From an uncultured Pseudomonadota bacterium (GTDB lineage: Bacteria > Pseudomonadota > Alphaproteobacteria > Rs-D84 > CACZYB01): DNA of 64,000 nt. The stretch is taken from assembly GCA_963541275.1 (NCBI GenBank), contig CAUTSC010000001.1, positions 73,879 to 137,878 of the forward strand, given 5' to 3'. The position numbers and the translations under genes are program-made. The notes below the pieces were generated by a model. The model was not told the origin of the DNA and did no database searches. It saw nothing but the letters and a program-made list of their open reading frames with translations. Positions 1,839-58,879 of the stretch are shown piece by piece. Position 1 is the stretch's first letter, and the number at the start of each line of letters is the position of its first letter.

Positions 1839-2474
1839 CTACCAATTATCACACAATTTATTTACTCTTAAATACTCTTCTTGACTATCATATTCTTGAT
1901 TTTTTAAAACCAGAACTTGTTGTAATTTATCTTTTAAAACTAAAACTTCCGGTGAATTAAAAATTCCATCCAAAACTTTTTCTATCTCTACTTTCTTTCT
2001 ATTTTCTAACATATCACTATTATCAAAAATCTTGTTTTTTATCGCAGTCAAAATCATATTTCCATAATGTTTAAGTTCACTTTGATAAATTTTTACATGC
2101 CCTTTTTCATGTTCTTTTATTGCCTTATATTCACAAGAATTTTTTTTATACTTACTATCTATCAACACATCTAAATTTTTATAACCTAACAACAAAGACA
2201 CTTTTTTCAAACTAACATTTTGCTCATCAACAGGCTCAAATTCTGCATCATATTTCATACGAAAATTCGCAAACGTTAACCCCAAAATCCGGTGATTTGG
2301 TGATATTTTTAAAATCTCAGCTTTATCAACACTTTTATAAACTGGATTTCCATAATTGATAGTTGTAAATACCTTTGGAACATTCGCCCTTACATCAAAA
2401 ATAACAACAAAAACAAAAATAAACAAAGATTTAAGAAAAGCTGTCAAGATAAACCTCCACAAATTTATCCCCAT
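1839..2474 (-). CDS. Hypothetical membrane-anchored or secreted protein with an HExxH motif, a putative zinc metallopeptidase-like protein (DUF922-like). Its start overlaps the virB4 3' end.
   Basis: N-terminal hydrophobic segment. Motif EHEKGHV (HExxH). 44-nt overlap with virB4 suggests co-transcription. Confidence 0.4.
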   Translation of the reverse strand: MGINLWRFILTAFLKSLFIFVFVVIFDVRANVPKVFTTINYGNPVYKSVDKAEILKISPNHRILGLTFANFRMKYDAEFEPVDEQNVSLKKVSLLLGYKNLDVLIDSKYKKNSCEYKAIKEHEKGHVKIYQSELKHYGNMILTAIKNKIFDNSDMLENRKKVEIEKVLDGIFNSPEVLVLKDKLQQVLVLKNQEYDSQEEYLRVNKLCDNW

Positions 2475-4863
2475 GTATTTTTCTTAATTCTTCCGCAATC
2501 AAAACTTGCTTTCTGCCACTATTAAATATCTGTAAATAATTGCCAAGCCCGGACAAATCCACATTCAAAATCACAGATTCGTTTATTGACGGCTTACGAA
2601 ACAAAATAGCATATTTCAAATCTTTAAATATTTTTCCTTGAATAAATGCCATTTCTTTATTGGTTAAATTCCAATTTTCATAATCTTCAATCCTTGCTTG
2701 AACGTTCCTGAAAAATATCTGTGTTTGACATTGTCCCCTTACCACTTCACCTATACCCAACTTATCCAAAATATTGGGTTGCTGGAATGCCGCCAAATAA
2801 GCTTGACGTTTTTTTCGTCCCTCTTGAAGTCCTATTACAAAATTATTCCTAAATTCTGTATTGGCAAGCATAGGTGCAGTCTCATCAATAATAATAAGTG
2901 ATGGATCCGCCGTTCTGGCTGTGATATTTTGTATTCTGTTCATGATATAACTAACCACCGCAGGCGCCAACACTTCATCTTCAAAAATATAGGTAAAATC
3001 AAAGGTTGTGAACCTGTTTGATAAATCTAAATTATCAGATTGATTATTAAACAATAAGCCATATTGATTATCATCAACCCAACGGAATAACTCTCGCCTC
3101 ATTTTTCCAGCCGGAGAAAAACAAGATTTATAAAGGTTTTTTAAACTTCTCTTACTTACATCTAAATAATCAAACGAAGTTGTCACAGCCCTTGCAATTT
3201 CTGTCTCACTAAACGCATCAGTATTAAGTGTAATTTCCTTTAACCAGCGCCTTAAAAAAGCCCTATTTTCCGGAGTATCATCAATCTTAAACGGATTTAA
3301 ATAAGCGGTTGTTCCACCCTTTTTAATTGTATCATCCTTTGTATCACCTTGAAAATTGATATATGCCCCACCTATGGAATAAGTAAATATTTCTGCTCCT
3401 CTGTATCTATCAAAGAAAAAACACCGCAAATCTTTAAAGCGAAGCGATTGCCCAGCCAAAAACGAATAAAGCGTTGTCTTACCTTGACCTGTTGGACCAA
3501 TGGCAACAGTATGCGCCACCGCAGCATCTGCATCATCAATATGAAATTGAAATTGATACGCTGTTCCTTGGTAAGTTGGAAATATAGAAATTGCCCCCTC
3601 ACCCCAATCACATTTTGATTTACCCTCTGGTTGCTTTTCAAAATTAAAACTTGTTGCAACCGCACGTGATAGCATTTTATACATACGCGGATATTTATCA
3701 TAAGTTGGAAATTGTGAAAACCACGAAGCCTGTGCAACCCAACCCTCACGAACCGGAGTAATTCCATAAAGCCTGCAAACTTTTTCTATCTCAAACACAG
3801 ATTTTTCTAACTCTTCCAAACTATCCGCACTTACAAAAAAAGTTTCCGCATAATTTACAAGCGTTTGGTGATCTTCGTCCCCTTGCTCTATTAACGCCAG
3901 CGCATCATCAAATTGCCGTAATACGTCATATGAAAAAGTCGTGGAACTTGCCATATTTTTTTGATTATTAAGTATCATTTGAGCTTTCAGTTTTGAAATA
4001 GGGAAAAGATTATGCACCACATTTACTTCAAAATTTTTGGATAAAATATCACTTAACATCTGCTCGTCAACAACACCTGCTTGCTGCTTTATACCAACAA
4101 CAGCCATGTATTTTCTTTTTGACCCAGATGAAAACCTTATCACTCCTTTATTATCAAAAAATATCTCATCCGCAACCAAAAGTTCACTTATGCTATCATA
4201 AATCATATTTTTTGAAACTGGTGATGGCCTTGAAACCCTGTTTATAATACTTGCAAAAAATGATAACGGACTTTCACTTTTTCCATCCTCAACTAACACT
4301 TCCGCTTCATAATTAGAAAGCATCGCCATAAGATTGGAACTTGCAGTATCTAAATCCTTAATTGCATCCTTTCTGTCATTAACAGACAAAACTATATAAT
4401 GCAAATTTTGAAAAATTTCCGCTTGTGCCTTGTTCCATTTTTCACTTATATTTTTTAAAAGCTTGTTATATTCATTAACTTTTGCCTCTTGATGTATCTT
4501 TTCACGTAAAGTAAAAATCCTTGTCTCAACACTTATTTCTGCCAAACTATCTATCCATTTTTTCCGCTCATCCAACAAATTTTTAATTGTCTCACGCGCC
4601 GCAAAACTAACTGGCATTCCCTTTACTTTAAAAACCCTAACAAGAGTTCCATTTAAACAAAGTATAGTTTTTTTATCATCTAACAACCTGTTAAATGGTA
4701 AATAATCAACAAGCCTTGTATCAAATGGTTTTTTAAGAAAAATATTGGAATTTTTACTAATAAGGAGCATAAAAATCACAGACACAGAAATAACCAGCAA
4801 AGTCCACAACAAATAATCAACTTCCGTCATTTTAAAAAACAATAATTGCTGTAAATTAAACAT
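2431..4863 (-). CDS. virB4: Type IV secretion system ATPase VirB4.
   Basis: 810 aa. Walker A GPTGQGKTT; Walker B/DE region IIIDE. Length and architecture are typical of VirB4/TrbE. It sits immediately downstream of virB3. Confidence 0.9.
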   Translation of the reverse strand: MFNLQQLLFFKMTEVDYLLWTLLVISVSVIFMLLISKNSNIFLKKPFDTRLVDYLPFNRLLDDKKTILCLNGTLVRVFKVKGMPVSFAARETIKNLLDERKKWIDSLAEISVETRIFTLREKIHQEAKVNEYNKLLKNISEKWNKAQAEIFQNLHYIVLSVNDRKDAIKDLDTASSNLMAMLSNYEAEVLVEDGKSESPLSFFASIINRVSRPSPVSKNMIYDSISELLVADEIFFDNKGVIRFSSGSKRKYMAVVGIKQQAGVVDEQMLSDILSKNFEVNVVHNLFPISKLKAQMILNNQKNMASSTTFSYDVLRQFDDALALIEQGDEDHQTLVNYAETFFVSADSLEELEKSVFEIEKVCRLYGITPVREGWVAQASWFSQFPTYDKYPRMYKMLSRAVATSFNFEKQPEGKSKCDWGEGAISIFPTYQGTAYQFQFHIDDADAAVAHTVAIGPTGQGKTTLYSFLAGQSLRFKDLRCFFFDRYRGAEIFTYSIGGAYINFQGDTKDDTIKKGGTTAYLNPFKIDDTPENRAFLRRWLKEITLNTDAFSETEIARAVTTSFDYLDVSKRSLKNLYKSCFSPAGKMRRELFRWVDDNQYGLLFNNQSDNLDLSNRFTTFDFTYIFEDEVLAPAVVSYIMNRIQNITARTADPSLIIIDETAPMLANTEFRNNFVIGLQEGRKKRQAYLAAFQQPNILDKLGIGEVVRGQCQTQIFFRNVQARIEDYENWNLTNKEMAFIQGKIFKDLKYAILFRKPSINESVILNVDLSGLGNYLQIFNSGRKQVLIAEELRKIHGDKFVEVYLDSFS

Positions 4864-4879
4864 AATATTCCTATAGTTT

Positions 4880-5176
4880 TTAAGGTGTAAATTTATTTCC
4901 TTTTTCTTTTACTGCATTTTTTGTATTTCTAACTTTTATATTGCTTCTTGCTGCAATAATTGAACTTATATGCGGTTCTTTTTTTCCAATTAAAATAGCA
5001 ATTCCATGAAGCACTACAAACAAAACCACAGAAAACAAAACATAAGTTCCCTTGCCATACATTAAAAATAACACCATCAATATAACACAAAAAACAAGGT
5101 TCATTATAAACAAAGAAAATGGTGCATAAAATATCACCATAGGCTGTGCCACAGATTTAAGTATTTCCTCTTTCAT
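4880..5176 (-). CDS. virB3: Type IV secretion system protein VirB3.
   Basis: 98 aa with two hydrophobic helices (PMVIFYAPFSLFIMNLVFCVILMVLFLMYG...), 17 nt upstream of virB4. Confidence 0.65.
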   Translation of the reverse strand: MKEEILKSVAQPMVIFYAPFSLFIMNLVFCVILMVLFLMYGKGTYVLFSVVLFVVLHGIAILIGKKEPHISSIIAARSNIKVRNTKNAVKEKGNKFTP

Positions 5177-5377
5177 ACTCCCCTCATATCTTCAAATATT
5201 ATAAGATAGATACAGATTTTTTACAAGAAAATTCAATAACCACTTATGAAACAAAAAATTGTTAACTAAACAAACCCTGTTGTTTTATTGCAAATTTTAT
5301 TCTTCTTTTTCTGTTGACAACTAACTTTTTACAATGATTTTTTTGACAATAAAATATAGGATTTTTTTATAAATTAT

Positions 5378-5700
5378 TATGTTAATATAAAAATTCTTCC
5401 AGGACTCTATTTTCCTATAACGGAAAATAGACAACAAGTATAAAAATTTTACATTATAACCCTATATACTCCAACTCTACGCTTTTATTTTCCTATAAAC
5501 TATTTATGTTAATATAAAAATAACTCTACCAGGACTCTATTTTTCTATATTGAAAAATAGTCTAGCAGTATTTTTTATATTAAACATTTTTGCCCACAAA
5601 GTTTATACTATCCTTAAAGATTTTAGTTCAAATAAATAAAAACTTCCTCCAGAACTCTATTTTTCTTTAATGAAAAATAGTCTACCAGTATATTTTTTAT
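5378..5700. repeat. Tandem array of about 2.5 units of a ~127-bp repeat. Each unit carries a hairpin element of the CTATTTTYC-N6-7-GRAAAATAG family.
   Basis: Units start TTATGTTAATATAAAAAT...CCAGGACTCTATTTT(C/T)C at 5378 and 5505, with a third partial unit at ~5633. Hairpins lie at 5407-5430, 5537-5560 and 5657-5680, and the last two are followed by T-runs. Confidence 0.7.
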
Positions 5701-5734: not shown

Positions 5735-6088
5735 TCACCCATAATCCAATAACGATTGCAGGTTGTATAATACCATTTTTTGCAAAATTATTATCAAATT
5801 TTCACCTATATAAAAATATTTTTGTAAATTTCTTACAAGCAAGTTAAATAGCAAAAATTTTTCCACATTAAAAACTTTCTTACAAAAATTGCAAACTTTT
5901 AAAACAGGCAAATTACTATTTTCAAAAGCACACAACTCCCAACTTTGCTCTATCTCAAAATCAAGATTTTTTGCTTCATCTAACTCGCAAGTTATAGCTT
6001 TTACATGCTTGCAATTTCCATAATCTGGATCCCTTGCAAGCGTATTTACCAAAGTTAATGTGCTTATCACATCATCATATTTAAACAT
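5735..6088 (-). CDS. Small cytoplasmic protein, MFKYDDV family member 1 (paralogues at 32461..32799 and 33828..34166). Function unknown; candidate immunity or partner protein of the adjacent secreted-protein cassette.
   Basis: AGGAG RBS then ATG at 6088. Conserved N-terminus MFKYDDVISTLTLVNTLARDP(D/N)YGN and C-terminus LLVRNLQKYFY...NLIIxLQKMVLYNL. No signal peptide. Confidence 0.6.
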   Translation of the reverse strand: MFKYDDVISTLTLVNTLARDPDYGNCKHVKAITCELDEAKNLDFEIEQSWELCAFENSNLPVLKVCNFCKKVFNVEKFLLFNLLVRNLQKYFYIGENLIIILQKMVLYNLQSLLDYG

Positions 6089-6318
6089 AATTTTTCTCCT
6101 TTTTTGTTTGTTAATGTTAATTATCGTCCCACCCACAATTCACTATCAGCATAGCTTTGCCAAAAACAAAACCACAATGAGAGTAAAAATTTTTTGATTT
6201 AATTTAGACTATATAGCTAGTATTTTGGGTATAGTTTACCCCTTGGTTAGTTATAATATAATCATTATTTTTTCAAAAATCAAGAACAAAATAAAAATTT
6301 TTTACATTTTTTATTAAA

Positions 6319-7068
6319 CTATTCTTGTTTATAAACTTCCAAAGTTGAGTACCTAAATATATTTAATGGATTTTGTGATAACCATTTACAATTGGAATCA
6401 TTAACTCTTTCATTCACAACAAAATTTTCATCATATAATTTATCATTATAGTATTTAGATATATGTTCATAACTAAATAAAACAACATTACCAACCCTCA
6501 CCAAACCTATTCCAATATTATAGAAGTTATTACTAGAATCACAATTTGTCAAATTTATTAGATTTCTATTCTGCACAAACTTTAATGCATTTAAACTATA
6601 TTTTTTTATAAAATCCAACACTTTATTTATATGGTACTCATAAAAACAACTGATCGCATACGAATCAAAAAATAATTTTTCATTATTATTAAGAGTTGTA
6701 ATAGTTAGAAAACTACCTAATAAAACACCATTTTTATTTTTTAATACTAACTTAAATTTATAACTTCCAGGCAACAAAAAACTATCACTAACTACTAGAT
6801 TTTGACTACTTAAATTAGAATCGTTTAATATTTTAGAAAAATCTATCCTAGTTATAAGTTGCCATTCATCTTTTTGCAAACTTTTCATTCCTTTAGCAAC
6901 AGCTTCCGCCAAACTATCTGCACTTGGAACATTATTTCTTATGCTTTCACCCATTGTGTCTTTCCACCAACTTTTCTTTGGAACGCAGGTGTAGAATTCT
7001 TGGGCGTTGACTACGCTCGCAACAAGCAAGCTTGCAATTATTGTTATTTTACTAGTTTTTTTCATCAT
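6319..7068 (-). CDS. Secreted protein, cassette A second gene: conserved N-terminal module plus variable C-terminal domain (homologous to 34798..35472).
   Basis: Start MMKKTSKITIIASLLVASVVNAQEFYTCVPKKSWWKD, conserved with the B and C copies. RBS AAAGGAGAAAAAT. The C-terminal domain shares ITRIDFSKILND...YNIGIGLVRVGNVVLFSYE...IFRYSTLEVYK with copy C. Confidence 0.7.
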   Translation of the reverse strand: MMKKTSKITIIASLLVASVVNAQEFYTCVPKKSWWKDTMGESIRNNVPSADSLAEAVAKGMKSLQKDEWQLITRIDFSKILNDSNLSSQNLVVSDSFLLPGSYKFKLVLKNKNGVLLGSFLTITTLNNNEKLFFDSYAISCFYEYHINKVLDFIKKYSLNALKFVQNRNLINLTNCDSSNNFYNIGIGLVRVGNVVLFSYEHISKYYNDKLYDENFVVNERVNDSNCKWLSQNPLNIFRYSTLEVYKQE

Positions 7069-7087
7069 ATTTTTCTCCTTTCTTTTG

Positions 7088-7597
7088 TTATGATTGTTTA
7101 AACATTTCATATCCAGACGGACAGCTCTTTCTTAAATCAATAAGTTCCATACCATCCGGACATTTTCCATTTGTGATTTTTTTTAGTTCATATCCCTCTG
7201 GGCAGATTCCTTTACTTGGTGCGAATAAGTCCATTCCTACGGGGCAATTTCCGTTTGAAACTTTTATCCCTATTGTACCATCGGGACATACAACTTGATT
7301 ACAACTTTGAAATGTTGTTTTGTTGAGTATCGTTCCAACCGGACAAGATTTACAAAGCCTATCACTTGGCGACCAAAAGTTGTTTGCACCATACCTGTTG
7401 CATTTAACTTTACATCCTGGTTCATTACAGATTGGCTCTTCATCACCCCCGCAAACTTCTTTGCCCCCGGCACTGATACCATATTTTGCGAGCGTCTCAT
7501 GTATAAGTTTTTTTGTTGCTTCGCTTGCCCCAAAAGAACCGGATTTATAGAGCAATAACACAAGCAAAACAGCATACTTAATTTTTGTTTTTTTCAT
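7088..7597 (-). CDS. Secreted cysteine-rich repeat protein, cassette A first gene (CPxG-repeat family; paralogues at 21585..22112 and 35494..36021).
   Basis: Signal peptide MKKTKIKYAVLLVLLLYKSGSFGA. About 16 Cys. Six CPxG units (CPVGTIL, CPDGTIGI, CPVGMDL, CPEGYEL, CPDGMEL, CPSGYEM). RBS AAGGAGGATGAT. Confidence 0.7.
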   Translation of the reverse strand: MKKTKIKYAVLLVLLLYKSGSFGASEATKKLIHETLAKYGISAGGKEVCGGDEEPICNEPGCKVKCNRYGANNFWSPSDRLCKSCPVGTILNKTTFQSCNQVVCPDGTIGIKVSNGNCPVGMDLFAPSKGICPEGYELKKITNGKCPDGMELIDLRKSCPSGYEMFKQS

Positions 7598-7800
7598 ATC
7601 ATCCTCCTTTTCGATAGGAAGCTGAAAACTATCAATGAATGTAAATAGTGTATAGTATTGGGTATTCCTACACCTTCCTACCTTGCAGTAGGATACATTA
7701 CAAAAACATCACCAAAAATGATGCTCACTCATTGAGGGCTTTCAGACCCTTTTATTACCGATACTAAAATAAAAAAAATTCTTATACAAGAAAAATATAT
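7598..7800 (-). promoter_or_regulatory. Conserved structured 5' leader plus promoter-like box of cassette A (copies at 22113..22320 and 36022..36245).
   Basis: All three copies carry, on the minus strand, CTTGTATAA(R)(R)A, then hairpin CCTAC-TGCAAG-GTAGG, then AGGAAGGT, then AATACTATAC(A/G)CTATTT, then (A)ACTTCCTATC (a 7-nt complement of TAGGAAG) just before the RBS. Confidence 0.5.
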
Positions 7801-7891
7801 CTATTGTGGAAATTTTGGATAGAATCCACCCCTGCCGTACTCTACATATATGCATCATAAAATTGAATTTCAAGAGCAAAAATAAATTTTT

Positions 7892-8467
7892 TTAAATTTT
7901 TTGCATTTTTAATTTTTCTTGCCTTTTCATCTCGTATTTCATTGCAAGTTTGTAAGAAATAATTGTTGAAATAATACACCAAGGAATACATCCAACAACC
8001 ATTGACACACCCCAATCTTTAAGCAAAATTTTAAAAATCAAAGTCCATTTATCAAGAAAAGAAATATCCCCCATAAAATTTTCTTTTACCACACCAACAA
8101 GCATACTATAACCGGAACTATCAACCACACCACCACGCATAAATTGACCAGTTATATAAAACACATAATAAACCGGAATCATAGTTATAACATTCGTAAT
8201 CCAAGTAAATGCAAGCCCCAAAGCAAGAGAAAAATCAAACTTGAAAAATTTTTTAAAAATAACCCAAGTTATAAACACAAGCCACATTTGTATTCCAATA
8301 AGTGGGGTCATAGCCCACGCAACACCAACCGCAATCCCCCTTGCCTTTACAACAGGTGGCAATTTTACACGTTTCACAGGAATAAATAACCTGTACTTAA
8401 CAACCCTTTTTATCCTTTCCCACAAATTATATTTTTTTAATCCCATACAAAAATTCCAAAATAACAA
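7892..8467 (-). CDS. DUF2062-family inner-membrane protein.
   Basis: ARGIAVGVAWAMTPLIGIQMWLVF motif typical of DUF2062, with multiple transmembrane segments. Confidence 0.5.
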   Translation of the reverse strand: MLFWNFCMGLKKYNLWERIKRVVKYRLFIPVKRVKLPPVVKARGIAVGVAWAMTPLIGIQMWLVFITWVIFKKFFKFDFSLALGLAFTWITNVITMIPVYYVFYITGQFMRGGVVDSSGYSMLVGVVKENFMGDISFLDKWTLIFKILLKDWGVSMVVGCIPWCIISTIISYKLAMKYEMKRQEKLKMQKI

Positions 8468-8911: not shown

Positions 8912-8986
8912 TGGCTGGGGTGGCTGGATTCGAACCAACGAATGGCGGTACCAGAAACCGCTGCCTTACCGCTTGGCGACACCCCA
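8912..8986 (-). tRNA. tRNA-Gln (anticodon CUG).
   Basis: Manual fold: acceptor UGGGGUG/CACCCCA, anticodon stem GCGGU/ACCGC, loop UUCUGGU, T-loop GGUUCGAAUCC, CCA encoded. Closely resembles E. coli tRNA-Gln. Confidence 0.85.
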
Positions 8987-9325: not shown

Positions 9326-9772
9326 TTATCTCTGTTTTTGATTTTTCAAAAGTTCTTTTTTTAAATCGTTTAAAGTTAAATATTTCAAAACTAAACTTTC
9401 ATACCCTTTTACACTATTTTTTAATTTTAAAAGTAAATCTTCATAATTTTTATCAACTTTTTCATTTCTATTTTTAAATCTTAACTTATCCATAAGGTTA
9501 TTTATTTTTGCCTCTAAAACCAAAATATTTTTGATAAATTTATTAAATTCCACAGCAATAGATGGATTTTTATTTGCAATAATATAAGGAATATATTCAT
9601 GTAAAGGATCTGCAAAATTATAAAATTTCATAATCCTTTGATTTTTAAGTGCATGATAATGTTTTGCAAGATCACTAAACCTGGTATCTTCATTATGCAC
9701 AACAGATAAAATTTTATCTATCTCATCCTGAGTCAACATATTAGTTTGAGATACAACCTTTTTCATAATCAC
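9326..9772 (-). CDS. Hypothetical protein (148 aa), intact copy of the duplicated gene that follows tRNA-Gln.
   Basis: ORF with AGGAG-like RBS; homologous to pseudogene 8507..8896. Confidence 0.5.
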   Translation of the reverse strand: MIMKKVVSQTNMLTQDEIDKILSVVHNEDTRFSDLAKHYHALKNQRIMKFYNFADPLHEYIPYIIANKNPSIAVEFNKFIKNILVLEAKINNLMDKLRFKNRNEKVDKNYEDLLLKLKNSVKGYESLVLKYLTLNDLKKELLKNQKQR

Positions 9773-9788: not shown

Positions 9789-9863
9789 TGGCTGGGGTGG
9801 CTGGATTCGAACCAACGAATGGCGGAACCAAAATCCGCTGCCTTACCGCTTGGCAACACCCCA
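9789..9863 (-). tRNA. tRNA-Gln (anticodon UUG).
   Basis: Same scaffold as the 8912..8986 tRNA. Anticodon loop UUUUGGU; anticodon stem GCGGA/UCCGC. Confidence 0.85.
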
Positions 9864-20424: not shown

Positions 20425-20506
20425 ATTTTCCAGTTTTTTAGCTATTTTTATATGTTTTTTTATAAATAAAACTTTGTTATATTTAAAAAACAATTCCACC
20501 AGGAAT

Positions 20507-20530
20507 CTATTTTTCTGTAAAGGAAAATAG
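20507..20530. repeat. Solitary copy of the hairpin repeat (CTATTTTTC-TGTAAA-GGAAAATAG) downstream of the glycine-rich gene.
   Basis: Flanks CCACCAGGAAT...GGCTATTAA match the other copies. Confidence 0.6.
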
Positions 20531-20572
20531 GCTATTAATTTTTAAAATATTATAAAATAACCAGTATTTTTA

Positions 20573-21127
20573 TTACCCTATATATTTATAAATTTTAACA
20601 TATCCATCACCTGAATTTCCATTACCTGATGAAGCACAACTACCAGCATTTACACGACCCTCATCATCAGGAAGGTTTCTAATAAAATAACCACCTTTTG
20701 AACATTCCTTACCTCCATCAAATCCTGTATAGTCCCCTTTTTCTTTTTTTATTTTATAATCATCACAACTTCCTTTACCAGGGATTCCACTAGCTAGTAA
20801 AATAGCAGAGTATGATATTTTACCCCCTGAAGTAAAACTAAAATATTCACAATTTTTATCATAACTGTCTACCGAGTCTAGATCTAAACCTTTACCTCCA
20901 ACTGCACATCCATAACCTCCTCCCCCACCTATTCCAATATGGTTCCAAAAACTTCTACAACCTCCACCACCTCCTCCAGACACATTTATTACTAAACTTT
21001 TATCTTCGAAGGCAAAAGCAGAGCCAGCTCCACCTCCACCACCGAACGAATAATCATCATACCTTCCAGATTTTCCAGATTTTCCAGATTCTCCTGCAAA
21101 TCCAACACAAGCATTATAATATTTCAT
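20573..21127 (-). CDS. Glycine-rich protein, the variable C-terminal portion of cassette B. Either a separate ATGA-coupled ORF or the frameshifted continuation of 21124..21564.
   Basis: Gly runs GGGGGAGSAF and SGGGGGGCRSF...GIGGGGGYGCAVGGKG. Its start overlaps the upstream stop as ATGA. The upstream ORF already ends in the same Gly-rich style (VAGGAGGRGSSDTGRSYAGGIGGLGE). Confidence 0.5.
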   Translation of the reverse strand: MKYYNACVGFAGESGKSGKSGRYDDYSFGGGGGAGSAFAFEDKSLVINVSGGGGGGCRSFWNHIGIGGGGGYGCAVGGKGLDLDSVDSYDKNCEYFSFTSGGKISYSAILLASGIPGKGSCDDYKIKKEKGDYTGFDGGKECSKGGYFIRNLPDDEGRVNAGSCASSGNGNSGDGYVKIYKYIG

Positions 21128-21564
21128 TTTTTTAGCAAAAATACTTTTTGAACTACTTCACCAAGTCCTCCAATACCACCAGCATAACTACGCCCAGTAT
21201 CAGAACTACCTCGTCCACCAGCACCACCTGCAACTATCACTTTATATATTCCAATGTTTAAACTATTTCTTAAATCATTGTTATACATTAGTTGCCAATA
21301 TTTATCATTATTTATTTGCGATTCTGCAAATTTTAAATTCATTTCCAACATAGCAATTTTTTCTTTTTCTTTACTATTTACAATACCATTTGCAATAATT
21401 TCTGCCAACTTGTCTGGATTTTGCAAACTATTTGATACACTTTCATTTATAGTATCTTTCCACCAACTTTTCTTTGGAACGCAAGTATAAAATTCTTGGG
21501 CGTTTACCATAGTTGCCACAAGCATTGCAATCAATAAAGTTATTTTACTAGTTTTTTTCATCAT
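21124..21564 (-). CDS. Secreted protein, cassette B second gene: conserved N-terminal module and the start of a glycine-rich variable domain.
   Basis: MMKKTSKITLLIAMLVATMVNAQEFYTCVPKKSWWKDT, near-identical at nucleotide level to copies A and C for ~110 nt, then divergent. Confidence 0.65.
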   Translation of the reverse strand: MMKKTSKITLLIAMLVATMVNAQEFYTCVPKKSWWKDTINESVSNSLQNPDKLAEIIANGIVNSKEKEKIAMLEMNLKFAESQINNDKYWQLMYNNDLRNSLNIGIYKVIVAGGAGGRGSSDTGRSYAGGIGGLGEVVQKVFLLKK

Positions 21565-21584: not shown

Positions 21585-22112
21585 TTATGATTGTTTAAAC
21601 ATTTCGTATCCTGACGGACAATTGTTTCTTAAATCAATAAGCTCCATTCCATCTGGACATTTTCCATTTGTGATTTTTTTTAACTCGTACCCATCTGGAC
21701 AGATTCCTTTACTTGGCGCAAACAGATCCATCCCTGCGGGGCAATTTCCACCACTTACTTTTATTCCAGTTGTACCATCCGGGCATACAACTTGATTGCA
21801 GCTTTGGAATGTTGTTTTGTTTAGTATCGTTCCAACTGGACAGCTTTTACATAACCTATCACTTGGCGACCAATAATTATTCGCTTTCAATCCAGTTGTT
21901 GCATCCACCCTGTTGCATTTTACTTTGCAACCTGGTTTATCACATATTGGTTCATCCGGTCTCCCACAAATTTCCTTACCCCCGGAACTTATTCCATATT
22001 TTGCTAGCGTCTCGTGTATAAGCTTCTTTGTTGCTTCACTTGCACCAAAAGAACCGGATTTACACAGCAATAAGTTGACCAAAATTGCATACTTGATTTT
22101 TGTTTTTTTCAT
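21585..22112 (-). CDS. Secreted cysteine-rich CPxG-repeat protein, cassette B.
   Basis: 175 aa, colinear with 7088..7597 and 35494..36021; signal peptide plus about 16 Cys. Confidence 0.7.
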   Translation of the reverse strand: MKKTKIKYAILVNLLLCKSGSFGASEATKKLIHETLAKYGISSGGKEICGRPDEPICDKPGCKVKCNRVDATTGLKANNYWSPSDRLCKSCPVGTILNKTTFQSCNQVVCPDGTTGIKVSGGNCPAGMDLFAPSKGICPDGYELKKITNGKCPDGMELIDLRNNCPSGYEMFKQS

Positions 22113-22320
22113 ATAGTCTCTCCCTGTTTTGATAGGAAGTTAGCAACTATCAATGAATGCAAATAGTGTATAGTATTGGGTATTTCTATACCTTCCTACC
22201 TTGCAGTAGGATAACCCACAAAACACCATTAAAAAAAATGATGCTCACTCATTGAGGGTTGTCACACCCTGTCATTTGTTTTCATAATAAAATTAAAATT
22301 TTCTTTATACAAGTGAAAAA
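22113..22320 (-). promoter_or_regulatory. Conserved structured leader plus promoter-like box, cassette B.
   Basis: Same ordered motifs as 7598..7800; CTTGTATAAAGA at 22303-22314 (minus strand). Confidence 0.5.
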
Positions 22321-32315: not shown

Positions 32316-32412
32316 GCATCTTATTTTATATTAAAAATTTTCATTTTATGTATCGATAAAAATTCTATCCATATAATTTTGTATTATTTTGAATAAACTT
32401 CCTACAGAACTT

Positions 32413-32436
32413 CTATTTTTCTTTAATGAAAAATAG
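32413..32436. repeat. Hairpin repeat (CTATTTTTC-TTTAATG-AAAAATAG) just downstream of MFKYDDV gene 2.
   Basis: Same motif as 5657-5680 and 33753-33776. Confidence 0.6.
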
Positions 32437-32460
32437 TCTATCAGTATATTTTTGAAACAA

Positions 32461-32799
32461 TTATCCATATCCGCACTTTAAGCACAGGTTATACAATACC
32501 ATCTTTTGCAAAAATATAATCAAATTTTCACAAACATTTACATATCTATAAAAATATTTTTGTAAATTTCTTACAAGCAACTTAAATCGCAAAAATTTCT
32601 TTGCTACAGCAAAAATATTTTTATAAAAATCGCTATTTTTAAAAACAACAAAATTGCAACCTTGCTCTGTTTTTAAATAAATATTTTGAAAATTTTTATC
32701 GCAATTGCAATTTACTTGCTTGATATTCCCATAATTTGGATCTCTTGCAAGCGTATTTACCAAAGTTAATGTGCTTATCACATCATCATATTTAAACAT
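32461..32799 (-). CDS. MFKYDDV-family small protein, copy 2 (apparently orphan, with no adjacent secreted-protein genes).
   Basis: AGGAG RBS plus ATG at 32799; MFKYDDVISTLTLVNTLARDPNYGNIKQVNCNCD... Confidence 0.6.
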   Translation of the reverse strand: MFKYDDVISTLTLVNTLARDPNYGNIKQVNCNCDKNFQNIYLKTEQGCNFVVFKNSDFYKNIFAVAKKFLRFKLLVRNLQKYFYRYVNVCENLIIFLQKMVLYNLCLKCGYG

Positions 32800-33115
32800 A
32801 ATTTTTCTCCTTTTTTGTTTGTTAATTTTAATTATTGTCACACCCACGATTCACTACCATCCCAGCTTTGCCAAAATCAAAACCACAATAACAGCAAAAA
32901 TTTTTAAATAATTTTCCTAAAAAATAGGATTTAAAATAAAAATTCACTCCAATATCTTTTTTTTTATAAAGATATTAGCCTGCAAGCTTTGCTTGCATCA
33001 ATAAAAATTCAGCTTATTTTTTGTAAAATTATTACTCTAACGAATGGATTTTGTAGACTCCACCCCTGCCGTATTTTACATATATTTACCCGATTTTTAA
33101 ATTTCAAGAGGTAAA

Positions 33116-33256
33116 GTGAAAAAAATTTTATTTTTTGAGATTTTTTTTGCAAACTTTGTTTGCGGCCAACATTTTTCTTTAGAAAAATATTGGGATGAAA
33201 TCTTTAATAAAATTTATATTACAACAACTACCTCTACCCACATCACAGCAAATTAA
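33116..33256 (+). CDS. Possible small ORF (GTG start, 46 aa), paralogous to 34488..34688. Its coding status is uncertain.
   Basis: Conserved core FANFVCGQHFS(L/K)EKYWDEIFNKI shared with the other copy. It is preceded by the conserved CCACCCCTGCCGTATTTTACATATAT...AATTTCAAGAG element. Confidence 0.2.
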   Translation: MKKILFFEIFFANFVCGQHFSLEKYWDEIFNKIYITTTTSTHITAN

Positions 33257-33752
33257 ACATCTATTCTCTGGAAATTTTGGGTATAGCTTACCCTTTGGTT
33301 AATTATAATATAATCATTATTTTTTAAAAGTCAAGAACAAAATAAAAATTTTTTACATTTTTTTGATAAAAATTTTCAAAATGGCGGATTTCTGCGGTTT
33401 TTTTAAACGTGGAAGAAGAGATAGACATTATATACAGAGGAAGAGTAAATATCTGTGGAAGAAGATTGGAATCTGCAATAAAGATTTATATCTATATAAT
33501 TTTTACTTTGTAAAAATTGGCAAATATATTTATTGATAAATATATTTGAATGATTATTTTTTTATTTAAATTCTGTAAAACAATTAATATAACTAGCATA
33601 GCATTGATAGCGGATTTCTGCGATTTTTTGCGGTATGGTAGTAAAGGGGGAGCCAATATAGAGAAAAACAACAAAAATATTTGATGGATAGTTGTTTAAT
33701 TACACTTCCTTATAAAATGATGATACATTATCTACAATTATCCACCAGGAAT

Positions 33753-33776
33753 CTATTTTTCTTTAATGAAAAATAG
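33753..33776. repeat. Hairpin repeat downstream of MFKYDDV gene 3.
   Basis: CTATTTTTC-TTTAATG-AAAAATAG with CCACCAGGAAT flank and a downstream T-run. Confidence 0.6.
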
Positions 33777-33827
33777 ACTGCCAGTATTTTTTATTAAAAA
33801 TGTTGCCTGCAAAAATTATTGAACTCT

Positions 33828-34166
33828 TCATCCATAATCCAATAATAACTGCAGATTATACAACACCATCTTTTGTAAAAATATTATTAAGTTTTTACAA
33901 ACATTTACATATCTATAAAAATATTTTTGTAAATTTTTTACAAGCAATTTAAACTGCAAGATTTTTTCCGCGTTAAAAACTTTCTTAAAAAAATTCCTAT
34001 TTTTAAAAAAGCACAACTCACAATCTTGCTCTGTTATTAAATAAATATTTTGCAACTTTTCTATATCGCAATTGCAATTTACTTGCTTGATATTTCCATA
34101 ATTTGGATCTCTTGCAAGCGTATTTACCAAAGTTAACGTGCTTATCACATCATCATATTTAAACAT
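33828..34166 (-). CDS. MFKYDDV-family small protein, copy 3.
   Basis: 112 aa; AGGAGAAAAATT RBS; MFKYDDVISTLTLVNTLARDPNYGNIKQVNCNCD...LLVKNLQKYFYRYVNVCKNLIIFLQKMVLYNL. Confidence 0.6.
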   Translation of the reverse strand: MFKYDDVISTLTLVNTLARDPNYGNIKQVNCNCDIEKLQNIYLITEQDCELCFFKNRNFFKKVFNAEKILQFKLLVKNLQKYFYRYVNVCKNLIIFLQKMVLYNLQLLLDYG

Positions 34167-34487
34167 AATTTTTCTCCTTTTTTATTTGTTAATGTTAATA
34201 GATTTTCCACCCACAACTCACCATCACCATAGCTTTGCATAAAAACAAAACCACAATGACAGCAAAAATTTAAAATAATTTTCCCAGTAAATAGGATTTA
34301 AAATAAAAATTCATTCCAATATCTTTTTTATAAAGATATTGGCCTGCAAGCTTTGCTTGCATAACTAAAATTTTATTTAATTGTTTGTAAGATTTTACTG
34401 CAATGGGCAATTTTGATACAACTCACCCCTGCCGTATTTTATATATATGTATTCAATTTTTAAATTTCAAGAGGGCAAACGAAAAAA

Positions 34488-34688
34488 ATGAATTTTTTTA
34501 CTTTTTTCAAAATTTTTTTATTCTCTAGTTTTTTTGCAAACTTCGTTTGCGGCCAACATTTTTCTAAAGAAAAATATTGGGATGAAATCTTTAATAAAAT
34601 TCACATAGCAACAACTATCTATGCCCGCACCATACAAATCAAAAATCTATTCTCTGGACATTTTGGGTATAGTTTACCCTTTGGTTAA
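34488..34688 (+). CDS. Possible small ORF (66 aa) with a hydrophobic N-terminus, lying on the opposite strand between cassette C and MFKYDDV gene 3.
   Basis: ATG preceded by CAAGAGGGCAAACGAAAAAAATG; conserved core with 33116..33256; ends in the palindrome-containing GGGTATAGTTTACCC region. Confidence 0.2.
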   Translation: MNFFTFFKIFLFSSFFANFVCGQHFSKEKYWDEIFNKIHIATTIYARTIQIKNLFSGHFGYSLPFG

Positions 34689-34797
34689 CTATAATATAAT
34701 CACTATTTTTTAAAAATCAAGAACAAAATGAAAATTTTTTGTCTTTTTTTATAAAAATTTTCAAAATGGCGGATTTTCACAAAAATATATCAAAATT

Positions 34798-35472
34798 TTA
34801 ATCATCATTTTTCTTATAAATTTCCAAAGTAGAATATCTAAAAATATTATTTTTATAATACTCATCAATAGGAGTATCATCTATAATATAATCTTGTTTA
34901 TTATTATTATCTCTGTATGTTTCATAGATAAACAAAACAATATTATTTAATTTTAAAATTTTTATTCCGATATTATAGCAGCTGTTAGTTATTATATTCC
35001 TTAGATTTCTATCTTGTATAAAAATAACTCTATCATAATTATAAGATTTAACAAATTTTAAAAATTCTGGAAATTCAAGATTCCAATCACAATCAATATC
35101 AACAAACGAACCTTGAAACAAATATCCATTTTTATCTAAATCTAACTTATTTTCAAAAATATTTAAAATAGTTCCGTTTTGATGTTTTAAGTTTAATTTA
35201 AATCTGTATGTTCCGGGCGATAAAAGACCAGGATAAATAGAAAGGTTGTTTTCATTTCTATTCCCGTCATTTATTATTTTTGTAAAATCAATCGTTGTTA
35301 TATGATTCCATTCTTGCCTTTGTCCTTTCCTTACACCTTTTTCAACATTCTCCCTTATCACATCTCCCCACCAACTTTTCTTTGGAACGCAAGTATAAAA
35401 TTCTTGGGCGTTGACCATAGTTGCAACAAGCATTGCGCTTAATAAAGTTATTTTACTAGTTTTCTTCATCAT
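34798..35472 (-). CDS. Secreted protein, cassette C second gene (variable C-terminal domain homologous to cassette A).
   Basis: MMKKTSKITLLSAMLVATMVNAQEFYTCVPKKSWWGD...; C-terminal ITTIDFTKIINDGN...YNIGIKILKLNNIVLFIYETY...IFRYSTLEIYKK. Confidence 0.7.
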   Translation of the reverse strand: MMKKTSKITLLSAMLVATMVNAQEFYTCVPKKSWWGDVIRENVEKGVRKGQRQEWNHITTIDFTKIINDGNRNENNLSIYPGLLSPGTYRFKLNLKHQNGTILNIFENKLDLDKNGYLFQGSFVDIDCDWNLEFPEFLKFVKSYNYDRVIFIQDRNLRNIITNSCYNIGIKILKLNNIVLFIYETYRDNNNKQDYIIDDTPIDEYYKNNIFRYSTLEIYKKNDD

Positions 35473-35493: not shown

Positions 35494-36021
35494 TTATGAT
35501 TGTTTAAACATTTCGTATCCAGCTGGGCAGTTGTTTCTTAAATCAATAAGTTCCATACCATCCGGACATTTTCCATTTGTTATTTTCTTTAACTCGTACC
35601 CATCTGGACATATTCCTTTACTTGGTGCAAACAGATCCATTCCAGTAGGGCAATTTCCACCACTCACTTTTATCCCAGTTGTACCCTCGGGACACACAAC
35701 TTGATTACAACTTTGAAAAGTTGTTTTGTTAAGTATTGTTCCAACAGGGCAAGATTTACATAACCTATCACTTGGCGACCAATAGTTGTTAGCTTTCATG
35801 CCGGTTGTTGCATCAACTCTGTTGCACCTTACTTTGCAACCTGGTTTATCACATATTGGTTCATCCGGTCTCCCACAAACTTCTTTACCACCGGAACTGA
35901 TGCCATACTTGGCAAGTGTCTTGTGTATCAACCTTTTAGTTGCTTCACTTGCCGCAAAAGAACCGGGTTTATAAAGCAACAAGCCGACCAAAAAAGCATA
36001 TTTTATTTTTGTTTTTTTCAT
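35494..36021 (-). CDS. Secreted cysteine-rich CPxG-repeat protein, cassette C.
   Basis: 175 aa, colinear with the other two copies; signal peptide MKKTKIKYAFLVGLLLYKPGSFAA. Confidence 0.7.
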   Translation of the reverse strand: MKKTKIKYAFLVGLLLYKPGSFAASEATKRLIHKTLAKYGISSGGKEVCGRPDEPICDKPGCKVRCNRVDATTGMKANNYWSPSDRLCKSCPVGTILNKTTFQSCNQVVCPEGTTGIKVSGGNCPTGMDLFAPSKGICPDGYELKKITNGKCPDGMELIDLRNNCPAGYEMFKQS

Positions 36022-36245
36022 CTCATCTCCCTTTTTTTATGATAGGAAGTTAGCGACTATGTTAAACAAAATAGCGTATAGTATTCTTAGATCTATTCCT
36101 ATACCTTCCTACCTTTCAGTAGGAATCCACTCCTTTAATTCATGCTCTTACAAGCACATAGTTTAACAAGGGTCGCTAAACCCATTCATTTATTTTCATG
36201 ATAATATCAAAAAGATTTTTATACAAGCGAAAAAAAATTGGAAAA
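36022..36245 (-). promoter_or_regulatory. Conserved structured leader plus promoter-like box, cassette C (the most diverged copy).
   Basis: CTTGTATAAAAA at 36216-36227. CCTACTGAAAGGTAGGAAGGTATAGGAATA...AATACTATACGCTATTTT...GCTAACTTCCTATCA retained despite divergence elsewhere. Confidence 0.5.
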
Positions 36246-57542: not shown

Positions 57543-58133
57543 ATGGAGTTTTTTATTTATTGTTTTGCTTTAATTATTTTTTGTTTTTCAATATTTCGTA
57601 GTGTATGGTATGAAATTGCAAGGTTAACAAATTATATTTTAATAAAAATTTTAGATGAAAATAAAAAATACAAATCAAAAAGTAAGAAAGTTAAGTCAGA
57701 AAGAAGTTGGATACAAAAATTTTTTTATAAGGATATATCAAGCTTCCCATACGAAAGACAAGCAACTAAATTTGCAACTTTTATTACTATAATATTGTTG
57801 ATAGCTTTATTTTTTTATTCTTTTTTTAAATTTGATTTTAAATCAAGAGATTTACTTGGAAAGATTATTTATCCTGTAAATATTGCTTTTTTATATAGTA
57901 TTATTTTTAGTATTCTTTTATGTTGGGATATTTTATTTTTTTTAATAAATAAATTTTTGATTTTAAAAAATAAGAAATCTAGTAATGAAAGAGAACTATA
58001 CACAAAACAAAATCTTTTAAAAACAGATATAAAAGACAAGGTATATGATATTGTTAAGGGAATTTTATTTGTGTTTAGTTATTTAGTCTTTTTTGTAATT
58101 ATTGCTTTCTTGTATAAAATATTATTTTTATAA
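57543..58133 (+). CDS. Hypothetical polytopic membrane protein, tandem paralogue 1.
   Basis: FRSVWYEIARLTNYILIKILDENKKYKSKSKKVKSERSWIQKFFYKDISSFPYERQA is shared almost verbatim with 58241..58879. Confidence 0.5.
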   Translation: MEFFIYCFALIIFCFSIFRSVWYEIARLTNYILIKILDENKKYKSKSKKVKSERSWIQKFFYKDISSFPYERQATKFATFITIILLIALFFYSFFKFDFKSRDLLGKIIYPVNIAFLYSIIFSILLCWDILFFLINKFLILKNKKSSNERELYTKQNLLKTDIKDKVYDIVKGILFVFSYLVFFVIIAFLYKILFL

Positions 58134-58240: not shown

Positions 58241-58879
58241 ATGAAAATTTTAGATATATTGTATAATGCTGCTTTTACATTTGCTTTTTATGTTCTAATA
58301 TTTCGTAGTTTATGGTATGAAGTAGCAAGGTTAACAAATTATATTTTAATAAAAATTTTAGATGAAAATAAAAAATATAAGTTAAAAAGTAAGAAAGTTA
58401 AGTTAGAAAGAAGTAGGATAGAAAAATTTTTTTATAAGGATATATCAATTTTTCCATACGCAAAACAAGCAAGAGAGACAGCTACTTTTATAACTATAAT
58501 GTTGATAATAATTTTATTTTCTCATTTTCTTTATGTTGAATTTAGTGAAGCAATTACAGATCCTTTTTTAAAAGGTTTATATCCAATGATTATTGCAATT
58601 ATATATATCTTTATTTTTAGTATCCTTTTATGTTGGGATATTTTACTTTTTCTTGTAAATAGATTTTTGATTTCTAAAAATAAAGTTGCCGATAGTAAAG
58701 AATTATATATAAAAAAGAATCTTTTAAAAACAGATATAAAAGAAAAAATATATGACATCCTTAAAGGAATTATATTTGTTATTGCTTTTTTGTTTATTAC
58801 TGCTTTTTTAGCTCGTTTAACAAATAATTTACCCTCAAAATCATCAGTATCCATTCCCGCGACAAACAAAACTTTGTAA
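58241..58879 (+). CDS. Hypothetical polytopic membrane protein, tandem paralogue 2.
   Basis: About 55-60% identical to 57543..58133 over its whole length; same topology. Confidence 0.5.
   Translation: MKILDILYNAAFTFAFYVLIFRSLWYEVARLTNYILIKILDENKKYKLKSKKVKLERSRIEKFFYKDISIFPYAKQARETATFITIMLIIILFSHFLYVEFSEAITDPFLKGLYPMIIAIIYIFIFSILLCWDILLFLVNRFLISKNKVADSKELYIKKNLLKTDIKEKIYDILKGIIFVIAFLFITAFLARLTNNLPSKSSVSIPATNKTL

Follow-up and report, generated by a model that had tools for sequence, protein, structure and literature searches.

Paralogous two-gene cassettes pairing a constant cysteine-rich protein with a variable, putatively exported partner behind a conserved leader RNA in an uncultured alphaproteobacterium

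Three paralogous copies of a two-gene cassette are carried by a 64,000-nucleotide stretch of DNA from an uncultured alphaproteobacterium (contig CAUTSC010000001.1), here called the window, by which the whole of the analysed DNA is meant. In each copy, a conserved 5' leader is followed by a nearly constant gene encoding a cysteine-rich protein (gene 1) and by a gene whose product joins a conserved N-terminal module to a variable body (gene 2). The copies lie on the minus strand, to which all cassette coordinates given below refer, and are arranged in register as direct repeats at 7910-5374 (cassette A), 22300-20474 (cassette B) and 36245-32380 (cassette C). A threefold block had been described from the sequence in an earlier inspection (the original prediction), and repeat finding bore this out at 78-89% identity, with repeat families D1 (300 nt, 84-89% ungapped identity), D2 (228 nt, 78-79%) and D5 (147 nt, 80-88%). 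Nucleotide alignment also mapped the breakpoints of identity. A MAFFT-based sliding profile stays at about 70-95% from position ~7800 to ~6940 in copy A and over the equivalent parts of B and C; past ~6940, A and C are about 50-65% identical and B is at background. The 20-nt leader motif GGTAGGAAGGTRTRGRAATA has three exact occurrences, against 0.00 expected from shuffled sequences, and no more than these three full cassettes turned up when all six frames of the window were scanned for the motifs.

Cassette A opens with a distal promoter-like element (7820-7910; repeat family D10) made up of an UP-like A/T tract, CTCTTGAAA, a spacer of ~17 nt, TATATG and ACGGCAGGGGTGGATTCTATC. It is followed at 7598-7790 by a proximal promoter (CTTGTATAAGAAT...TAGTAT), a GC hairpin and the conserved leader, as delimited by alignments of nine loci. 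The leader core (7598-7700) contains CCTAC, GGTAGGAAGG, CTTCCTATC and two internal hairpins. Gene 1 of this cassette (7088-7597) encodes a protein of 169 amino acids, and gene 2 (6319-7068) a protein of 249 amino acids with a variable body of type 1, in the order signal peptide, QEFYTCVPKKSWW module, two helices and a beta-sandwich ending in TLEVYKQE. In cassette B, the proximal promoter and leader (22113-22300; repeat families D15 and D18 and the leader alignments) precede gene 1 (21585-22112, 175 amino acids) and a glycine-rich gene 2 (20573-21564) that ends in GDGYVKIYKYIG and is split into open reading frames (ORFs) of 146 and 184 amino acids. Cassette C has its proximal promoter and leader at 36022-36245, gene 1 at 35494-36021 (175 amino acids) and a type-1 gene 2 at 34798-35472 (224 amino acids). 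Gene 2 starts 19-21 nt past gene 1 in all three.

The gene-1 proteins (169-175 amino acids) consist of a signal-peptide-like N-terminus and a mature part with 12 Cys and six CPxG units. The original prediction had counted the six units correctly, while its figure of 16 Cys is too high for the mature protein. The Cys number is even, and across homologues Cys residues are lost in pairs. Both gene-1 and gene-2 proteins start with a Lys-rich n-region and a hydrophobic core that lead to a cleavage-type site, between FGA and SE or between VNA and QE, so their products are probably exported by the Sec pathway, judging from these signals. Comparisons of gene 1 among A, B and C gave a synonymous divergence (dS) of 0.76-0.90 and a nonsynonymous divergence (dN) of 0.04-0.09, and hence a ratio (omega) of 0.06-0.10 (0.09-0.10 for A against B and C). 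The proportion of synonymous differences (pS) is about 0.42-0.61 and is alike in both halves of the gene. A pS of around 0.5 together with a low omega indicates that the nucleotide identity of the copies reflects protein constraint on old paralogues rather than recent conversion or shuffling; recent gene conversion was rejected as its source on the same pS. The claim that three copies are being maintained is upheld by these omega values. Gene-1 proteins gave sub-threshold matches only to eukaryote-type extracellular Cys repeats (cEGF, Ephrin_rec_like, CC and Antistasin). The match to Ephrin_rec_like (PF07699) reached 14 bits and missed the Pfam cut-off of 23.1, with E<0.1 in 8 of 30 members, and hhalign of the gene-1 alignment (A1) against P0091, a gene-2 family member that carries such repeats, returned a probability of 7%.

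The second gene begins with MMKKTSKIT...VNAQEFYTCVPKKSWW in every copy, as had been reported. Its N-terminal module, of Sec type, spans about 45-110 amino acids and contains a single, often unpaired Cys. A lipobox was looked for by direct reading and is absent: cleavage would fall between ...TMVNA and QEFYTC, and the Cys lies 7 residues past the A-x-A site, after F-Y-T. The bodies of A and C are homologous (42% identity, omega 0.50), in agreement with the earlier description, and that of B is glycine-rich. In the first 36 codons pS is 0.26-0.52, near the gene-1 values. The copies had been said to diverge completely immediately after the residues SWW, and this part of the description did not survive closer comparison. 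A and B remain 68-82% identical at the nucleotide level for ~130 nt further, with the common residues KDT(M/I)xES...(A/P)D(S/K)LAE..A.G, and homology reaches about 65-75 residues past SWW, to a common L-PG-YKF strand. When sequences trimmed after SWW were compared profile to profile (hhalign), all types aligned through W-LI...L-PG-YKF with 96-97% probability, and the full alignments A6 and A8 matched with 99.95% probability across 84 columns. All gene-2 types also resemble one another in their final strand (TLE[IV]YKK, LYKYE, DGYVIIEKLE or GDGYVKIYKYIG). The body of B is thus glycine-rich, as proposed, and is not unrelated, since its first strands and a similar last strand are common to A, B and C. 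As far as profile comparison can tell, divergence of paralogues from one scaffold seems to describe the three bodies in the window better than a swap of unrelated domains does. A weak PKD/Y_Y_Y similarity at the L-PG-YKF strand hints, at most, that this strand is of an Ig-like or sandwich kind.

The AlphaFold2 model of the copy A gene-2 protein has a mean predicted local distance difference test (pLDDT) score of 80.7, with residues 65-249 mostly at 84-97, except around residues 171-180 and 201-230, where the score falls to 56-72. The model consists of a signal helix, two helices and a beta-sandwich, whose first strands (WQLITRIDF and LLPGSYKFKLVL) occur family-wide and whose last strand is TLEVYKQE. 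Foldseek returned no match to this model at E <= 0.001 in the PDB or BFVD. The weak neighbours that were listed are jelly-roll binding modules (CBM6/35, capsid P domains, MATH/TRAF, the ALK glycine-rich domain and TNF ligand), and no toxin-like fold is among them. For the glycine-rich type, sequence searches of the PDB and of phage records were negative. Across the family, the same N-terminal module carries type-1 sandwiches, short forms of ~145 amino acids, two glycine-rich forms, Ephrin_rec_like (PF07699) repeats (P0091, E = 7e-19; P0093, E = 1.3e-10) and short coiled-coil/Cys-knot tails. At least three kinds of C-terminus that are unrelated to one another thus follow the signal peptide and QEFYTCVPKKxWW, namely the sandwich/glycine-rich group, Ephrin_rec_like repeats and coiled-coil/Cys-knot tails. 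The modular architecture that had been proposed holds at the level of the family, while domain swapping inside the window is the less likely reading.

Gene 2 of cassette B is read as two ORFs (21124-21564 and 20573-21127) that overlap by ATGA and meet at an A7 run (21127-21133). The addition of one A to this run (A8) would restore a continuous glycine-rich protein of 330 amino acids, in which ...EVVQKVFLLKKMKYYNACVGFAGESG... falls in line with intact homologues: a 360-amino-acid protein from locus L074 (...EVFLVKKNESYSSCFGRKG...), P0104 and P0111. Past the junction, 184 codons can be read without a stop, up to the conserved terminal motif of the family. In cassette B, then, either the frameshift arose very recently, or the homopolymer was misread in sequencing, or slippage at the A tract rescues the gene. 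In functional terms, the A7 run could reflect phase variation, transcriptional slippage, sequencing error or a fresh pseudogene. Rescue by slippage at A tracts has been documented in AT-rich endosymbionts (PMC5009743, PMC3017870).

The cassettes are not confined to the window. A 401,359-bp NCBI contig that encodes the window proteins at 100% identity contains at least seven gene-1, at least nine gene-2 and four small genes of a kind described below. The protein families are nonetheless very rare. Gene 1 forms 27 clusters, and when 1.84 billion representatives were searched exhaustively by profile, 58 matched gene 2, of which the three weakest long ones are PKD-repeat proteins. In all 11 loci examined, the three in the window and eight from European Nucleotide Archive (ENA) metagenome assemblies (L072-L075 and L079-L082), gene 2 comes after gene 1, with a gap of 11-21 nt and a Shine-Dalgarno (SD) site. 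The further loci lie in unrelated neighbourhoods, among them downstream of rplU-rpmA and of a MacB-type ABC transporter, and constant pairing across such neighbourhoods indicates that the two genes form an operon and a unit of inheritance. Their sequences also co-vary loosely: cysteine-rich proteins ending in FKQS go with KKSWW modules, and those ending in ATNNYTT..C.N go with DDWF, RSWV or DDWV modules. Searches elsewhere returned nothing. The cysteine-rich profile found no relative in 185,579 species-representative genomes, and tblastn found none in phage and plasmid records. No cassette protein matched Pfam or NCBIfam at the curated threshold, and no significant match was found among PHROGs, PADLOC or PDB sequence profiles, in keeping with the earlier remark that no family could be named. 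A housekeeping identity such as a chaperone/usher pair, which had been raised as the outcome that would overturn the prediction, fares no better, with no match of any cassette protein to chaperone, usher or pilin families in Pfam or NCBIfam.

In the nine aligned leaders, which come from the window and from related organisms, a promoter (CTTGTATAAAAAT...TATCAT) and a GC hairpin precede a core of ~100 nt that is nearly invariant, while flanking synonymous sites are ~50% diverged; that the core is better conserved than its neighbouring synonymous sites argues for a function. RNAalifold predicts a three-way junction, with helices P1 (GGUAGGAAG with CUUCCUAUC), P2 (GUAUAG with CUAUAC) and P3 (ACUAU with AUAGU), in which 99.4% of the cells of the consensus pair. 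In P2, two sequences carry a compensatory double change from A-U to G-C. An extended P3 helix was rejected, as its pairing is inconsistent between loci. The fold of the copy A leader has a z-score of -3.74. In an alternative fold, pairing of CCUAC and GUAGG frees CUUCCU to pair with the SD of gene 1 (GGAGG or GGGAG). This anti-SD:SD fold is the minimum-free-energy structure in seven of eight leaders, and in A, B and C the two folds (ON and OFF) are 0.6-2.2 kcal/mol apart. Thus, the leader may act as a switch that sequesters the SD, as these predicted structures suggest. In Rfam, only tRNAs in the window scored above the gathering threshold; the best match to the leader is to a microRNA, is due to chance and, at 21.7 bits, falls well short of the threshold of 56. 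A scan of JGI metagenomes with the leader motif gave three chance matches with the wrong GC content and no cassette.

The distal promoter-like element has the general form A/T tract, CTCTTGAAA, ~17 nt, TATATA and ACGGCAGGGGTGAGTTCTATC. The same element precedes the cassettes in L072, L073 and L074 and the small genes in L083-L085. That it is common to cassette leaders and small genes in several organisms suggests that they are co-regulated. Its identification as a sigma-32-type promoter from CTCTTGAAA was rejected because the -10 region misfits, and a generic scan for sigma-70 promoters and terminators was uninformative in the AT-rich DNA of the window.

As had been observed before, a small gene encoding a cytoplasmic-looking protein that starts with MFKYDDV lies 3' of cassettes A (sA, 5735-6088, 117 amino acids) and C (sC, 33828-34166, 112 amino acids), and none follows B. 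The protein belongs to a real, conserved and clade-restricted family of 16 clusters, with omega of 0.3-0.6 and a first stretch of 25 residues that is almost invariant. The original prediction had taken it for the cognate partner of the variable protein, and on this point the comparison went the other way. The small gene is set apart from the preceding gene by 230-630 nt and carries a conserved promoter-like element of its own (6230-6320 before sA, a weaker one related to D10 at 60%; 34417-34507 before sC). In L084, it follows P0095, a gene-2 family member with a coiled coil and a Cys knot and hence a C-terminus unrelated to type 1. Besides B, the eight other cassette loci lack the small gene within the extent of their contigs. 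To judge from this arrangement, the small gene is not a cognate immunity partner. In cassette C, it is doubled: a tandem duplication of ~1.37 kb within 32380-34797 comprises spacer, small gene and hairpin, in units that are 79-91% identical, and the second unit (32380-33144) contains a promoter-like element (33054-33144), small gene sC2 (32461-32799) and a hairpin (32380-32447). In another locus (L083, positions 2-298), the small gene is preceded by the 3' end of a Cys/Ser/Asp-rich ORF (...CVECTSDSHCSGRRTCSGGNCVCN...SSDDSSSDSSDDD...), which may be a further C-terminal type of the gene-2 family.

An AT-rich hairpin, CTATTTTTC-loop-GAAAAATAG with the conserved flanks ATACTGGTAGA...AGTTCTGG, lies at the 3' end of every cassette. 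There are six copies, three of them in tandem at the end of cassette A (5374-5441, 5504-5571 and 5624-5691, together 5374-5691; repeat families D4 and D6), one in B (20474-20541) and two in C (32380-32447 and 33720-33787). The triplicate is spaced at ~120-130 nt, just upstream of virB3. The element is possibly an AT-rich terminator or resembles repetitive extragenic palindromic (REP) elements.

The surroundings are those of a low-GC chromosome (~29% GC in the window) with the genes virB3/virB4, ligA, rsmG, trmD, uvrD/pcrA, thyX and an rpoH-like gene. The LigA protein is 67% identical to that of an uncultured alphaproteobacterial metagenome-assembled genome (MAG) and ~45-50% identical to those of gut alphaproteobacterial MAGs (~48% for gut 'Azospirillum sp.' MAGs). 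The GC content and these nearest gut relatives are the only grounds for supposing that the organism may be host-associated. Directly downstream of cassette A, on the minus strand, are virB3 (4880-5176) and virB4 (2431-4863), followed by ORFs at 1839-2474 and 532-1587, also on the minus strand and without a family match, which might encode divergent VirB6-like proteins. The adjacency of cassette A to type IV secretion genes is probably coincidental, since the other cassettes are not beside such genes. Two tRNA-Gln genes (8912-8986 and 9789-9863, anticodons CTG and TTG, minus strand), 877 nt apart and 94% identical over 82 nt, flank an unassigned ORF of 148 amino acids (9326-9772). On the plus strand, 57543-58133 and 58241-58879 are tandem paralogous ORFs of 196 and 212 amino acids, 81-85% identical at the nucleotide level in blocks and without a Pfam match; they are a further duplicated gene specific to the clade.

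Taken together, these observations are tentatively interpreted as a family of bicistronic operons in which a constant disulfide-rich protein and a variable exported protein form a surface or extracellular binding repertoire whose translation is gated by the leader. A probability of roughly 45% is assigned to this interpretation. Each cassette would be a self-contained transcription unit made up of promoter, 5' leader, gene 1, gene 2, sometimes a separately promoted small gene, and the 3' hairpin. In the OFF state of the leader, the SD mimic GGUAGGAAGG would pair with the upstream CCUAC, and the anti-SD CUUCCU would be free to sequester the gene-1 SD. In the ON state, GGUAGGAAGG would pair with the anti-SD within the three-way junction and the SD would be free. 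Gating of translation in this manner is probable. Gene 2 would be translated from its own SD, and its product would have a constant mature N-terminus (QEFYTCVPKKSWW, one or two helices and the first two beta-strands) and a remainder that differs between paralogues. The two products would pair outside the cytoplasm, where the constant cysteine-rich subunit would recognise the N-terminal module of its partner, possibly via the often unpaired Cys. The interface could lie between QEFYTCVPKKSWW and either the conserved ASEATKKLIHETLAKYGISAGGK or the Cys-repeat region. The variable beta-sandwich or glycine-rich bodies would then offer differing binding surfaces, as in a repertoire of adhesins rather than of toxins. 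In a more specific and improbable version, the pair would be a kind of bacterial two-subunit recognition system not known before. Its constant subunit would be disulfide-rich and TNFR/EGF-like and would dock via the invariant QEFYTCVPKKSWW on diversified jelly-roll heads (TNF-like, sometimes with polyglycine insertions), which would bind receptors, be interchangeable and be kept as a repertoire in the chromosome. SD-sequestering leaders of a new class would switch all copies in response to a common signal.

Several points weigh against the interpretation as a binding pair. Physical pairing of the two products and their binding function are putative, as deduced from gene order and sequence. The loose co-variation of the two genes could stem from duplication of whole operons. 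The model of the cysteine-rich protein is poor (pLDDT 56), and it was left out of the fold search. Fold matches of the variable domain are weak and generic, and a modelled beta-sandwich is no proof of a binding role. The final site of the products may be the periplasm, the outer surface or the medium. The MFKYDDV protein has a role for which a binding pair does not account. Lastly, 115 of 500 shuffled alignments reach the observed covariation score of the leader; the statistics fail to beat shuffling because the sequence hardly varies.

The original prediction favoured a polymorphic toxin, bacteriocin or effector system, in which the N-terminal module exports toxic or effector C-termini and the MFKYDDV protein confers immunity. 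The family-wide combination of one module with several unrelated C-termini has this look, as does a small ORF under some constraint 3' of A and C, and small glycine-rich and cysteine-rich secreted proteins can be antimicrobial. The proposal is nevertheless improbable on the present evidence. The model of the type-1 domain is a beta-sandwich without toxin-like neighbours, and no toxin or defence match was found in Pfam, NCBIfam, PHROGs, PADLOC or the PDB. The position and promoter of the small gene, its association with a different C-terminus in L084 and its absence from B and eight other cassettes (as far as their contigs reach) leave no co-varying immunity gene, and the 401-kb contig has four small genes against at least nine second genes. 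The orphan C-terminal cassettes expected of such systems did not appear in the six-frame scan of the window, and the paralogues are old and conserved rather than rapidly shuffled.

A structural role in the envelope is unlikely but is favoured by other features. The proteins would build a disulfide-cross-linked layer of the periplasm or outer membrane like that of chlamydial OmcA/OmcB, with paralogues as stage- or condition-specific variants. The gene-1 protein is exported by its signals, disulfide-rich and strongly conserved, the single and often unpaired Cys of the partner module could fit such a layer, the copy number is high in a low-GC and possibly host-associated genome, and glycine-rich proteins are often structural. 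There is, however, no homology to any envelope protein family and, as read from the sequence, no membrane anchor or lipobox; the variety of partner bodies, with Ephrin_rec_like repeats and coiled-coil tails, is also left unexplained by a structural role. The idea that the cassettes are functionless remnants of a mobile or duplicated element, kept alike by gene conversion, is very improbable. It could draw on the frameshift in B, the tandem duplication in C and the repeated hairpins at cassette ends, and on the location of the cassettes, which lie among unrelated housekeeping genes and close to tRNA genes. It is largely refuted by the selection analysis, in which the low omega of gene 1 and its near-saturated synonymous divergence exclude both decay and recent conversion of that gene. 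The other ORFs are all intact, the downstream frame of B is open to its terminal motif, the window contains no transposase or integrase genes, and the operon is conserved in related organisms. The probability that is left over from all these readings belongs to something else.

At least seven gene-1 and at least nine gene-2 paralogues under strong purifying selection on a single 401-kb contig represent many loci spent on one system. If the constant/variable pairing is true, the cassettes would give a host-associated alphaproteobacterium a new and compact means of displaying alternative binding surfaces, and the leader would become a new candidate for a riboregulator of translation. If the pairing is false, they would still be a clean case of an orphan secreted-protein family with a misleadingly toxin-like look. 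None of the components, whether the two cassette proteins, the small protein or the leader RNA, has described relatives, while the architecture has precedents.

Polymorphic toxin systems of the CDI (contact-dependent growth inhibition), Rhs, LXG and MafB type have a conserved N-terminal part and alternative C-termini. The cassettes resemble them in this respect and in the presence of multiple copies per genome. They differ in having no large trafficking domain and in placing a constant partner gene upstream, and they contain no recognisable toxin class (nuclease, deaminase, ADP-ribosyltransferase, peptidase or pore-former), no adjacent co-varying immunity gene and, in the scanned window, no orphan toxin or immunity cassettes. 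RNA thermometers and translational riboswitches sequester the SD. The cassette leader shares with them a conserved anti-SD, a competing SD mimic and two exclusive folds of nearly equal energy, and differs in its lack of an Rfam match and in its insufficient covariation support. The Ephrin-receptor-, TNFR- and EGF-like repeats (PF07699, PF23091, PF12662) resemble gene 1 in their CxxCPxG(T/Y) spacing, and gene-2 members P0091 and P0093 carry true PF07699 repeats. The S16/T-even gp38 adhesins of phages are receptor-binding proteins built on glycine-rich scaffolds (PMC12032242), and they are listed among the closest known systems together with the glycine-rich domain of ALK/LTK (PDB 7lir, 7nx3).

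In the paralogous lipoprotein families UHB ('upstream homology box') and OspE-OspF-Erp of Borrelia burgdorferi, many loci are reported to have in common a highly conserved upstream region and signal or leader peptide, followed by mature parts that differ, and their products are described as exported host-interaction or adhesin proteins (Marconi et al. 1996, PMC178399, and Akins et al. 1999, PMC96492, both as cited in PMC10016077). The cassettes differ from these families in that they are not on prophage plasmids, have no sequence homology to them and belong to an alphaproteobacterium rather than a spirochaete. They also lack the lipobox with Cys at +1 that was sought by comparison with Borrelia UHB/Erp and with the Vlp/Vsp proteins of Mycoplasma, and their conserved unit adds a whole constant gene 1 and a structured 5' leader. 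What the cassettes share with both the Borrelia and the Mycoplasma families is a common upstream region and leader peptide in front of divergent mature parts. Paralogous exported families of the Borrelia UHB/Erp kind are the closest known counterpart of the cassettes.

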